Source of the DNA: Tubiluchus corallicola
Taxonomy: Eukaryota > Animalia > Priapulida
Assembly (NCBI GenBank): GCA_030141605.1
Contig: JAQGDQ010000006.1
Coordinates: 1,699,067-1,763,066 of the forward strand
Length of the DNA: 64,000 bases
Reading direction: 5' to 3'
How positions within the stretch are numbered: position 1 is the stretch's first letter; each line of letters starts with the position of its first letter. A program made the position numbers and the translations under genes. Positions 45,801 to 51,800 of this stretch are shown here, piece by piece. The notes below the pieces were generated by a model, which saw only the letters and a list, made by a program, of their open reading frames with translations, was not told the DNA's origin and did no database searches.

Positions 45801-48800
45801 TGGAGTATATTGAATCTATTGTTCACATAACTGTTAACTAAATAGCATTGTAAAGCTTTTTCACTGTTGGATAAGTAAAACCTGCATCAGCTCAAATATA
45901 CAAAAACTGTCTAGTCACAAGGTACCTATATTTTCAACCTGCCAAGGAATTGTATTGACATTTTGACTTCTTAGATTGAGCTTTTTCATCTTTATTTTTA
46001 TACATTTAGCCAAAAACTCAATGTTAATTAGTAGCTTCCTAATTAGATCTGGTAAAAACTTAAAATGATGGTGTACGTATGCGCTGTCAGTTATGCCTTT
46101 GTTCATAGCATGCTGTGGAGAAAATTTTGACAATGATTACTGGTACATGTATGTATTTTTCACATTCTGGGTTGAAACGGACTAGGTAGGAAACCAAGCC
46201 ATTTATTGTTGAGTTCTTTTTTGCAGTCGGAACAAATAAACCAGGCATTACCGCTGAACGAAAACAAATTATACGGTCAAAAATACGTGCAATAGGCCGC
46301 ATTGCACGCATGTATCATGTCCTACGGTAAGTGGAGAAGCGAACCACCCTGGAAACCTCCGCATTGCATGGAGTGCCTAGTCGTCGATGCAAGTGCTAAT
46401 GCATTAGAGATGCCTGCGGCTAATACTAACATTATATTGTTTCTAAATAGAGTGTATTTGCTTCCGAAGTGAAGAGAATTCTTAAACCTAACCGGGCACT
46501 AAACTTATTTTTTAATAAGTGCCTTACTGATTTGATATTGAAGCAACGATTCAGTAAATGCCCTTACTAGTTACACTCGGTGTTCATTTCACGGTCCCCT
46601 TATTACTTTGCTTTACAGGGAAAAATGTCGATGAGTTAATAAAAGAATTAAAACTTATTCAGCCTGTGTGTGTTCGCTCAGACCTAAGACTTGCGGCATC
46701 AGATGAAGACCTAGGTATAAGAACTGCGAATGATGCGCTTTATTATTAACAAAGTGGAGCTGAATATGAATTGTGCTGTTGCATATAATTAAATATGACT
46801 GACTAACATTTTTTTTTAAATTCTGGTTTTGTATTCAGTTAAAGAATAGGAACTTGAGCAAAAAGTACGAATTGATCTTTTTTACCTTTGTTGTTATTTA
46901 AAGCCCGTTGGCTTTTTTGTTGTATGAGTAGGTGTGCGTGTGCACGTGCGCGCGTGTGTGTGAATTTTATATTGTTATTCTAGAGTTGCCAGATTTGGCA
47001 GTTTAAGTCCTTAAACTAGTGTTGAAATTTATCAACGACCATCAACAGTTTGGAATATTATTAAAAAAATGAGAATATGCACTTATGGCAATGTTACTTT
47101 TCGTAACACTGTTCGTATTTCCTGACTTGTGTGATGTTTTGATTTGGGTGCCCTGCTGTTTTTTTTTTTGTCAGTATATGCTTATGTTCAAGTCGACCTT
47201 ATGTACAAGTCGATGTGCATTTGAAGACCAAAAATTGTATCATTTTGTATATTACCTGTGTACAAGTCCACCCAAAAATATTAAGATCTTCCAGAGTAAA
47301 TGATGTCAACAATGGCCGAGTAATAAATCAATAGCCTACTGTGTTAGTGTGTAAGATACGTGCAAGTGCCTGGGCCGAGTATATTATACCTACCCGATGT
47401 ATATATATATATATATATATATATATATATATACTCATGTTGAGGGCCATCAATGCAATCCATGATAATGCAGCCTGGCCTTTCATCACGCATAATTGTT
47501 TGTAATGCCTTTAACGCTAGTATATCGAGCCCAGGATCCGTCGTAACATTTCAGTCGCTGATTTCTCAATTAAAACTAAAAACACATACCTGAAACGGCA
47601 CAGTTTTATTCAGTAACATCTTTTGAATAGAAATACATCTCAGTTTTCAAATATCAATTCCGTTTATGCATATTTACGCTAGATTTTCAACAGTCAGTAT
47701 CAATCTGAAGATTGTTTTTGCTCCTATATTTACATGTACTGATCGAGTGCTCCGTCGCTAGTTCATTTGCCGGTAATATATAAATTTTAACTTAATTTCA
47801 CATACATTAAAGTAAATTGCAGTAATATTTCTTAATTTTGTGAAGTAAGATGCAAACATTCTCTGATGTGAAGTATCACAGTATGAGTGTTCATTCAGTC
47901 CAGTGTATAATGAAGGATTATTTCTTTACATATTCGTATTGTAGACGACTCTTTAGCGACATATCCCAAAAACTTATCTTAAGTATAAGTCGACCCGAAA
48001 AATTTCACCTTAAAATCGCCTCCCAAAAATTCGACTTGTACATAAGTATATACGGTACTATGTAGACGGTTAACTTCACTAATGCCGCCCATACTACTAA
48101 TTGACATTAATTAGAGACCTTCTTAAGTGCAATATGCTGGAGTCAAAGTTTAGAAATGATAAATCTCGATTTTTATATCTTACAGTAACATCTTAGCGTC
48201 TGTTTCTTTCACCTGTTTTGTCATGCTGTATCAGTGGAGGCTTGTAGCTAAAATAAGTGGGGTGCTGCTTCAGGAAATTTTTAGCCATTGTTTTAATGCT
48301 ATGCAAAATGAAACAAAACATATGTAATTTTAATGTTGTAATTTGTAATTGTAATTTTAAACAAACAAGCATACAAAAACATACGTAAACTTGATAAAAT
48401 CCTAAAAGAAAAAAATTTTGCTTACGAATAGCCTAAATTGCTGCAGTTCAAGAATATGCCAGTACATGGTTTTTAAGAACGTGACAACTGACAACTGTGT
48501 GAGTGACAGTACTTTCTCTACCTAGCAGCAGATGCTAGCAGTGCAGCACAATCATGTGCTCTGGTTCCGTACAAGTATAAAGAAAGAACTAAAGAAAAAA
48601 GACTTATTGTATTGAATATTATCGATAATATTGAGTGAAAATAGGGGGTGCTGCAGTTCCGATACTTATACACAAGCCGCCACTATGCTGTGAACTGGTT
48701 TAAGTGATTCGACAGCACGCGCCCCTTTATATGCCATATATCTCTCATAATTTATGTACTCACAATGTTAAAAAAATTCCTGGCTTATAATCTGGCAACT

Positions 48801-51800
48801 CTAGCGAAAATTTAACAACTGTTTGTTACTGGTTTTTTTTTATTAATTATTTTTCTTTTTACAGTTATACTTTTTTTGGAGAACTTAATCAGTTATAGTT
48901 TGATATGCCTTTGCTTGTATATTAATAAATATTTGTCATATTTATAGACTAGAAAACTTCGGCTTCAGTAGTGGTCTGAATCCTTTATTAATATTTTGTG
49001 TGCGAGTAACTTACTAACACGCTCATGCATGATTTGCTTGCTTGATTTGCCAACAGGGGGAGCTGCAGCAGCAGCACGGAAAGAAGTGATTAGAAATAAA
49101 ATTCGGGCAATTGGTAAAATGGCAAGAGTATTCTCCGTTCTGAGGTGAGCCTTACTAATTCTTGTTTGCATGTTGCTATAAGTCTCACAGTAGTTTAGTT
49201 TTAGTGCACTGCAAGTGAAATCAAACTTTGCAAATGAGTCGAACTTTGTTACGCGTAAGCATATTTCACTGCAATAATTGTGCCTCCTTACTGTCTCAGT
49301 TAAACAAAGCAGCAATGAAACATCACATCTGACAGATAATGCAATTATTCTTTTGAAATTTTGATGCCTAAATGCAGAAGATATAAAATTTGCTGCTTAT
49401 ATTGTTGAGTAATATGTTGAAAACAACAGCAACATCAGATATTTACTACTAAGATTCTAGAGACATTTTTAGTAATCTCATTGGCACATTTGCTTTAATC
49501 GAAAGACCTCATTGATTCTTCTTTATTAGTGTCTATAAAGTTTGCAGTCTAGTATGAAAGAGGGTTTGAACAAGTACCTGTTGTTATTACTGCATTTTTA
49601 TTGCTGCGGTTTTACGTTGTACTAAAGCGGTGAATATTTGAAATTCTTTTCAGAGAAGAAAGCGAAAGTGTACTGCAGTTAAAGGGTCTCACACCTACAG
49701 GATTGCTACCACTGGGTGCTTTGTCAGGGGGAAAGCAGAGCTTGCAGGGAGGTGAGTACTACATGATGGCGGAGATATTATTGCCATCCAGCACAAATGT
49801 TAAGTGCACAGTTCATAAGTTATTTTCATTGTCACATTTTCTCTATTTGATTTAGTGGTAATTTGGTTTTCTGCTAGTTAGCCTACTTGGCTGACTTGAA
49901 GATAGTGAGGAATCATAGGATGCTGAATAATGTATTCTGAGTCTTCATTTTTAACAAAATCATGCGCCTGTAAACTAAACAATTCTGTAAATGCCTTTTT
50001 TTACGTAACTAGTACTGTATATTTCGTTTTTTATTTGATTTCACTATGAAAAAATACAATATTTGCTGTAAATTCTAAAACTTTAGGAGAAATATGTTAC
50101 TAACGCCAACGTGAATGATACAGAATGCTGTTTCGGTAATATGAGAACAGAAGTATGTACCCGACGTTTATCAAAATATTTTAGTAACTATGCATTCAAG
50201 TTATACAACTTTTTTCTTTTAACGAGTGTTCTTCTGTTCTGCGAATATGCGGTAGCAAATTCGATTCCATCAAAGGAAAACATAGTTTTCTTGCAAAGTA
50301 CTTTTTTCTGCGACTTCCTTTAGTGTTCTTGTAATGCAACTTTCACTCTTTTTTCTTCCTGCTTCACTAGAGTTGGAAGGTAAGTTTCAATTATGCAAAG
50401 CGATTGACTTTGTTTTTGTTATGTCAGTTTTGTTTCTCTGTTATGTACCTTTCTTTTTGTTAAAATTATTGCCAATGATCAGCAGTTTACTCATTACTCA
50501 TCAAATACCTAAAATTGCAAAAAGTTTCCTGTGGTACTTTAGTATGCAGTTGTTTTCACACCATATCACACAGCTATTTCAGTCTATAACTTTCATTCAT
50601 TCACATCAACAACAACTAGCAGGCAACATGTTCATCATGTAGTATCGTCAACAGATATTTAAAAGCCATTTTGGACTGTTGTTTTTTTTTTTGCTGTTCG
50701 AATAATCAATTTCTTCAGTTTAACAAAGAAAATTTTAGCATAAAGAACTGAGTACTTAGCTTTGTATGGCAGGGTATTAAATAATTTTTTAACAAACTTG
50801 CGTTACAAATTTTAACAGTTTATAATGTACTCTTTCATTTTTAAAAACTAGTAGACATTTTAGAGGTGCCCTAAAACGGAATCGTCTGAATGCAACAACG
50901 AAATCCTCATCAAAACTACTTCAGTCTTGCCATCGGCTGGGTTTTAATCAGCAATTATTTTGCTGCTTTATCCTGCATGCATCTGCATATTCCCAGCAGA
51001 TAGTAAACTTAGTGTTTGCTGATTTAATATTTATGGCACCCTATGAAATGATTACTGCTGGTTGAAGCACCAAGAGACAACTGTTTTCTGGCCCACAAAA
51101 ATCAATAACAATTTTCAGTGCTAGTTTAAGTGTACAATGCTCAGCACGTGAAAAACCATAACAGCTGTATGTGACATCGACATTATTTGTTGAATTTTAA
51201 ACTCGCTGTTCCGTAAGGATCGTTACATTTTATAATGGACCAATGACGAGCAATTAGCCATATGTTTTGTGTTTTCTAATAGATACCTTCATGCATTTTC
51301 GGTTATCGCAAATTATTCTAATATAACATTTTAAAAAGTATTATTCTTTTGCCTTTGTTACTCAATAGCCTTTGTCACTCAATAAATTGGTCAAATATCA
51401 ATAATACTGGCTTGACAGTGGCAGTTCAGAAGCGATTTTAACACTTTTACTAGTTCAGCACCTCACAATAGAAGGATTTGGATGAAATAGTAGAGTGAGC
51501 TAGCCTGAGGTTAGCTTACTCAGAGAAGCCAAGCTAGTGCTTGTATTACAAATCTTGCATTTGGCATAAAACAATGTTAGGCTTGATCAACTTACTTGAC
51601 TGCAATTGAGTAGTAGCCTGGCTTACACAATCCAGAAATCAGCTTGCATTACAGCTGCAGTTTGTTTTTGCTTGTGCACTGTGATTAGTATAAATGCACC
51701 TGTGTCTCTCCTTAACTTTGTTCATTCGACTTAGTGCTTTCATTGATCGGTGATCAGGTGGTCAGCACTACATTAGTACATAAATTTGCAAATGATTTGA

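Follow-up and report, generated by a model that had tools for sequence, protein, structure and literature searches.

FGFR2 exons IIIb and IIIc are homologous and mutually exclusive. A pair of this kind has been described in a calcineurin A gene: C. elegans tax-6 carries homologous mutually exclusive exons, 13a and 13bc, used in neurons versus muscle and with non-redundant functions (PMC12503234). The helix through which calcineurin binds calmodulin differs little from one animal to another and holds calmodulin extremely tightly, and the reason for such tightness is open (PMC7456046). Here we analyse a calcineurin A gene of the priapulid Tubiluchus corallicola in which the exon encoding this helix is present in two copies, 11a and 11b. 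The gene lies on the + strand of a 64,000-nt stretch of contig JAQGDQ010000006.1 (assembly GCA_030141605.1, positions 1,699,067 to 1,763,066), which we call the window and whose numbering we use throughout.

Two copies of the calmodulin-binding exon

Exons 2-10, 11b, 12 and 13 (numbered as in the preliminary description of the locus) all have AG/GT ends and together encode 480 residues with zero internal stops; a tblastn search of the window did not locate exon 1. The protein is 87-91% identical to its top 25 matches, which come from arthropods, molluscs and annelid-like sources, and in a quick tree of calcineurin A proteins the placement of the gene carries no starred support. The exons are as follows.

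12694..42060, + strand: exons 2-9 of calcineurin A (eight exons, all AG/GT)
42688..42765, + strand: exon 10, the common exon upstream of the pair, ending in phase 1
46227..46326, + strand: exon 11a, the divergent copy of the calmodulin-binding exon, 100 nt, phase 1 to 2
49057..49144, + strand: exon 11b, the standard calmodulin-binding exon, 88 nt, phase 1 to 2
49654..49751, + strand: exon 12, the common exon downstream of the pair, starting in phase 2
51925..52082, + strand: coding part of exon 13, with the autoinhibitory domain and the stop

The preliminary description had reported two homologous exons of 100 and 88 nt, each 3n+1, entered in phase 1, left in phase 2 and bounded by AG and GT; coordinates, lengths, phases and ends are all as it claimed, and the junction positions it gave (42765, 46227/46326, 49057/49144 and 49654) are borne out. 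Its account of the reading frame holds as well. Joined through either exon alone, 10-11a-12-13 and 10-11b-12-13 are both open to the normal stop, while inclusion of both exons (10-11a-11b-12) or of neither (10-12) leads to a premature stop, located 149 nt before the last junction in the first case and 69 nt before it in the second. Open frames for each exon singly, and premature stops otherwise, support the proposal that exclusivity of 11a and 11b is enforced by the frame.

The 11b helix is the human alpha 391-414 peptide as printed in PMC6151454. Fifteen of the 24 helix residues are identical between 11a and 11b and 11 of those 15 codons differ, counts that we confirm when the split Arg codon is included; over whole helix codons the residue is the same in 14 of 23, with 10 of the 14 codons different. 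The linker in 11a is four residues longer than in 11b. The likeness of the two exons is beyond chance, with a BLOSUM62 local score of 79 against a mean of 13.1 (sd 3.5) for 15,978 six-frame windows. A phmmer search of PDB with 11a returned nine sequences at E<=1, every one a calcineurin A chain or a calmodulin-binding peptide from it, and the lowest E was 2.4e-5; a Pfam search with 11a gave no match. The introns that we scanned hold three candidate internal exons, among which 11a scores highest and is the only one to combine a calcineurin match with phase 1 to 2.

Divergence between the copies

The two exons have 44 of 84 aligned bases in common, and the introns around them resemble each other no better than shuffled sequence does; the duplication is therefore old. 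Over 23 codons pS is 0.85, that is, silent sites are saturated, and pN is 0.29. We simulated a pair in which 11b is constrained and 11a has been neutral from birth, at six ages with 4000 runs each. At every age 0 of 4000 runs matched the silent divergence together with 14 identical residues, no stop, AG/GT ends and the calmodulin contacts: at young ages identity is easily kept and the silent divergence is not reached, and at old ages the reverse holds. An 11a that was dead from birth is ruled out by this simulation. The earlier claim of an old duplication under protein-level selection is thus supported by pS/pN, by the simulation and by the kept contacts, which together reject death from birth and are compatible with recent death. 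These comparisons support 11a as a real, selected duplicate exon and an old copy.

Splice sites and proposed exclusion

We built a splice-site matrix from the constitutive sites of the gene itself (11 acceptors and 10 donors). On this scale 11a ranks within the top 0.44% for its acceptor (2052 AGs scored) and the top 0.79% for its donor (2535 GTs scored). For 11b the donor is in the top 0.24% and the acceptor in the top 29%, weak but still within the range of constitutive exons. The preliminary description had called the splice sites of both exons strong, which is right for both sites of 11a and for the 11b donor and wrong for the 11b acceptor. One further element stands near that acceptor.

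49012..49018, + strand: match to the branch-point sequence TACTAAC, one of six in the window, some 40 nt before the weak acceptor of 11b

TGCATG, which we take to be the RBFOX motif, occurs 39 nt after 11a, 31 nt before 11b and 23 nt after 11b, against a window density of 0.44 per kb, and these sites are a lead to candidate regulatory elements.

Steric exclusion is ruled out because the exons are 2.7 kb apart. Nor did we find a docking/selector RNA stem: local folds gave z of 0.19 and 0.57, the best duplexes of four probes were equalled by 1 to 10 of 12 shuffles, and none of the 290 inverted repeats in the window is compelling as a docking stem. A stop that precedes the last junction by more than 55 nt exposes a message to nonsense-mediated decay (NMD). 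Each of the two exons has a length of 3n+1, and the stops of both wrong combinations exceed this distance, which fits policing by NMD. In C. elegans NMD supports exclusivity in 14 of 19 exon clusters of non-3n length (PMC4165533). In the mechanism that we propose, splicing factors would pick 11a or 11b, and NMD would remove messages in which both are included or both skipped; 11b would give the standard form and 11a probably a minor or tissue-restricted variant.

What 11a changes in the helix

In human alpha numbering, 11a differs from the standard helix by A391E, E394Q, V395I, N398S, K405R, M406I, V409M, F410Y and S411H, and the net charge is +7 for 11a and 11b alike. The residues named as calmodulin contacts are I396, I400, I403, F410, L413, R392, K393, R408 and R414 (PMC6151454). 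In 11a eight of these nine are identical and one is changed, F410Y (P=0.048, taking the 15/24 identities as given). For comparison we used 227 helices found in 304 fetched proteins, a redundant set rich in insects and molluscs. E394Q, N398S, K405R, M406I, F410Y and S411H are found in none of them; V409M occurs in 1, A391E in 30 and V395I in 61.

Five of the nine changes fall within 405-411 (P=0.042, for a region picked after seeing the data), at or next to the autoinhibitory segment ARVF and the Ca2+/calmodulin-dependent kinase II (CaMKII) site, Ser411. The segment ARVFSVLR is autoinhibitory and docks into the groove between subunits A and B; the Leishmania version has Met and His where 11a has Met and His (PMC8470620). 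According to a further report, it is the calmodulin site that blocks the substrate site LxVP (PMC7456046). In 11a ARVF reads ARMY (V409M, F410Y) and Ser411 is replaced (S411H), so the standard segment is not retained. Phosphorylation of Ser411 is inhibitory and mainly due to CaMKII (PMC11358029). The Ser411 site is not universal, as 19 of the 227 helices have Gln at 411. The worm CaMKI site is located in the next exon (PMC12503234), and the Val and Arg upstream of it are kept in both 11a and 11b.

We predict that the 11a isoform still binds Ca2+/calmodulin and that its basal inhibition and activation threshold differ. Having no Ser411, the 11a enzyme could not be switched off by CaMKII at that site.

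Related arrangements in other animals

P0121, an open reading frame (ORF) in Logan genomic sequence, reads through two tandem copies of the calmodulin-binding exon with 17 residues between them. The copies start xTTV and xGAV before AARK, and the implied intron between them is 53 nt, short enough that it could exclude sterically.

Oyster RefSeq isoforms of equal length come in pairs that differ only at xGTI versus xGAV, whatever linker inserts lie upstream. The difference is at the same three linker positions in two pairs from Saccostrea and one from Magallana; two Ostrea edulis isoforms differ at the xGTI/xGAV linker positions and also at helix position 407.

Oyster isoform pairs: P0143/P0173, P0137/P0134, P0163/P0025, P0171/P0238; the oyster isoforms include XP_048758767.1 and XP_056018795.1

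Two whole alternative exons would be the best account of these pairs. Two 9-nt microexons before a shared exon are an alternative and explain everything except the Ostrea difference. Judged from P0121 and the oyster isoforms, the two-exon architecture is probably not unique to the T. corallicola genome.

A further locus was noted among the sequences compared: L074:4560-4730 is a second calcineurin copy that is degraded, lacks introns and contains a stop; next to it is an intact copy, likewise without introns.

Is 11a used?

The reading that we favour, with a probability of roughly 0.6, is that 11a and 11b are live mutually exclusive exons, 11b the standard one and 11a a likely minor or tissue-restricted alternative. 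We infer that the gene actually switches between them.

A search of sequencing runs listed none of RNA, a result that counts neither for nor against use. Contigs of four runs were compared with window positions 37900-52200 at 80% likeness. In X6, a run guessed to be RNA and from a diverged relative, the bins that contain 11b and exons 12 and 13 have depth equal to about 96, 100 and 166 nt of a contig of depth 148, a pattern that fits an 11b-12-13 transcript. The 11a bin (46009-46485) has zero cover in X6, X5 and X3. X6 is weak for 11a, as the bins of constitutive exons 6, 8 and 10 are uncovered too and its exon 9 piece, in which 21 of 120 letters differ, only just passes the cut-off; X3 is near-identical to the window where aligned but patchy. 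The least comfortable result is that of X5, a diverged DNA run, which has some depth at 11b and at every constitutive exon from 6 to 13 (a repeat dominates the exon 7 bin) and none at 11a, although in a run of such low depth absence, divergence or a gap would look alike.

Several further observations weigh against a pair in use. Among the contig joints listed there is no exon junction for either 11a or 11b, and no junction or transcript joining 11a to exon 10 or 12 was seen. Word searches found no protein of 75-2000 or 23-74 residues that contains three 5-residue words of 11a; this is weak evidence, and at 90% clustering any 11a isoform would fall together with the corresponding 11b form. A search of 50%-representative proteins with 11a gave P0121 alone, which is 11b-like (an Atlas search with 11a returned only unnamed clusters, all under 0.9). 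In a metagenome scan the 11a-type helix was in none of the best 80 of 229 confirmed relatives, ranked by likeness to 11b, a ranking in which an 11a-like locus would come low. A second exon copy is present in 0 of 34 intron-bearing metagenome loci, just four of which span exon 10 to 12; the genomic loci with that span have a single copy in 4 of 4 cases, so the duplication is not a general feature. For the oysters, the reading was drawn from protein models and not from DNA. The simulation is compatible with an exon that died recently as well as with a live one, and the six residues of 11a that are unseen elsewhere would fit a new function but equally relaxed selection. On the wider distribution, a duplicated calmodulin-binding exon likely recurs without being general, the oyster helices having hardly diverged.

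Relaxed selection is part of an explanation that we regard as unlikely: that 11a once functioned as an alternative exon and has since fallen silent, or almost so, its unusual residues being the result of that relaxation. A pN of 0.29 in a helix that is nearly invariant elsewhere, six residues unseen in 227 helices and the failure of the protein searches to find any 11a-type protein all agree with such silencing. Yet 11a has neither a stop nor a frameshift, its contacts are spared and its changes conservative, and its splice sites are among the strongest of the gene, so strong that an unused 11a would need active repression.

An intron block just downstream of 11a bears on a second explanation.

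46512..46840, + strand: intron block just 3' of 11a, also present in X5 (29 other letters, 11 gaps)

It holds a good acceptor at 46619, AATAAA at 46638, ATTAAA at 46647 and a weak donor at 46715, and is a candidate for a cassette exon, a 3' end for 11a or a splicing element. With it 11a could serve as an alternative last exon, giving a calcineurin A without the autoinhibitory domain whose message is polyadenylated near 46660, either by read-through of the 11a donor into an immediate stop or by splicing to 46619 with a stop after four residues; we consider this quite improbable. Read-through past the 11a donor does meet a TAA, but read-through past the 11b donor also meets a stop. The acceptor at 46619 is in the top 0.97%, but the segment that starts there also forms an open 96-nt phase 1-1 cassette. 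The two hexamers are followed by a GT-rich tract, but AATAAA occurs at 1.3 per kb in the calcineurin A gene. Presence of the block in a diverged DNA run is in keeping with this explanation, as is a report that an enzyme truncated just past the calmodulin site remains Ca2+/calmodulin-dependent (PMC7456046). The 11a donor, for its part, is strong and its phase matches exon 12.

Very improbable, in our estimate, is that 11a acts mainly as a poison exon, its inclusion with 11b sending messages to NMD and so tuning the level of calcineurin. The stop of 10-11a-11b-12 lies far enough upstream, the sites of 11a are strong, and over 2.7 kb there is no steric bar to splicing 11a to 11b. Such an exon would need no amino-acid conservation, yet in 11a the calmodulin contacts are kept while silent sites are saturated. 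Finally, a haplotype or assembly duplicate is ruled out by the low base identity, by the unrelated flanking introns and by a contig of one DNA run, possibly the source of the assembly itself, that covers 43386-47217 with one difference at single-copy depth.

A broader reading, which we offer only tentatively and place somewhat short of even odds, is that one gene, depending on the exon chosen, also makes an enzyme whose sensor is rewired: the anchors would be kept, the autoinhibitory segment changed and the CaMKII off-switch at 411 absent, and the exon duplication would have arisen or persisted in more than one invertebrate lineage (T. corallicola and oysters). Nature would here have exchanged a helix that is otherwise almost frozen across animals, and the sensor exon would join the known splicing of the calcineurin regulatory region, which so far concerns linkers and the C-terminus. 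With a selected 11a variant in the same gene, the two helices would provide a natural means of telling the effects of calmodulin binding apart from those of autoinhibition and feedback.

Other elements of the window

Within the block downstream of 11a, 46619-46714 on the + strand is an open 96-nt segment of phase 1-1 with a strong acceptor, a weak donor and no Pfam match. It may represent a linker cassette of 32 residues that precedes 11b, comparable to the linker inserts of molluscs and amphioxus. We rejected the idea that it is a decayed exon 12 copy left by a block duplication (p=0.13 for protein and 0.12 for DNA, no profile match); a search of the window with the exon-12 profile finds one copy.

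Two candidate microexons were noted. The first, 6 nt at 44379-44384 on the + strand (phase 1-1, adding two Asp between exon 10 and 11a), has a donor in the top 4% and a weak acceptor; the intron around it, at about 44290-44390, is present in both X5 and X6, two diverged runs that share all five of the differences listed there. The second, 9 nt at 50371-50379 on the + strand, lies between exons 12 and 13 in the LR2 position and keeps the frame; its donor is in the top 0.04%, and TGC stands just upstream of its acceptor. An intron block at 51033-51290 on the + strand is present in X5 as well (25 other letters, 14 gaps).

Near the 3' end of the gene, a 63-nt tandem duplication at 51766-51891 on the + strand, 98% identical and recent, ends 33 nt before the exon 13 acceptor. 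Beyond the gene, an ORF at 57694-58830 on the + strand matches the Pfam reverse transcriptase family RVT_1 (E 5.5e-19), and an ORF on the - strand at 57048-57608, with no Pfam match, resembles by eye the tail of another long interspersed nuclear element (LINE).

Comparison with known systems

The variants of mammalian PPP3CA/B/C, namely the LR1 and LR2 cassette exons and the alternative 3' end of CnA-beta1, likewise vary the regulatory region; they alter linkers or the C-terminus, unlike the helix swap of 11a, and among the variants surveyed in the parts of PMC12503234 available to us none has a second calmodulin-binding helix. The preliminary description knew of no earlier account of the arrangement seen here. 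For this pair that stands, as the full-text literature searched, which includes few subscription papers, yielded no account of calcineurin with its calmodulin-binding exon duplicated. The arrangement is probably not unique, given P0121 and the oysters, and the tax-6 pair lies one exon downstream. The exon duplication in oysters and P0121 is itself probably undescribed.

The tax-6 pair, the nearest case that has been described, resembles ours in being homologous tandem exons in the regulatory domain of the same gene, and the worm exons are used singly. Unlike the exons described here, 13a and 13bc encode the linker after the calmodulin-binding domain, with the motif EESESVL/HESESVL that is in exon 12 of T. 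corallicola (PMC12503234). In T. corallicola it is the calmodulin-binding exon itself that is duplicated, as known from the gene sequence, and the pair is not of the tax-6 linker (LR2) type. The NMD-policed exon clusters of C. elegans are also homologous, of similar length, non-3n and able to keep the frame downstream; unlike ours they have been verified by RT-PCR and NMD mutants (PMC4165533). The oyster isoforms and P0121 appear to carry two versions of the calmodulin-binding exon, in P0121 directly in tandem. Their helices are identical or differ at one or two positions, unlike those of 11a and 11b, and in P0121 the implied distance from one copy to the other is 53 nt. What distinguishes the T. 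corallicola pair is the extent to which 11a departs from a nearly invariant helix.

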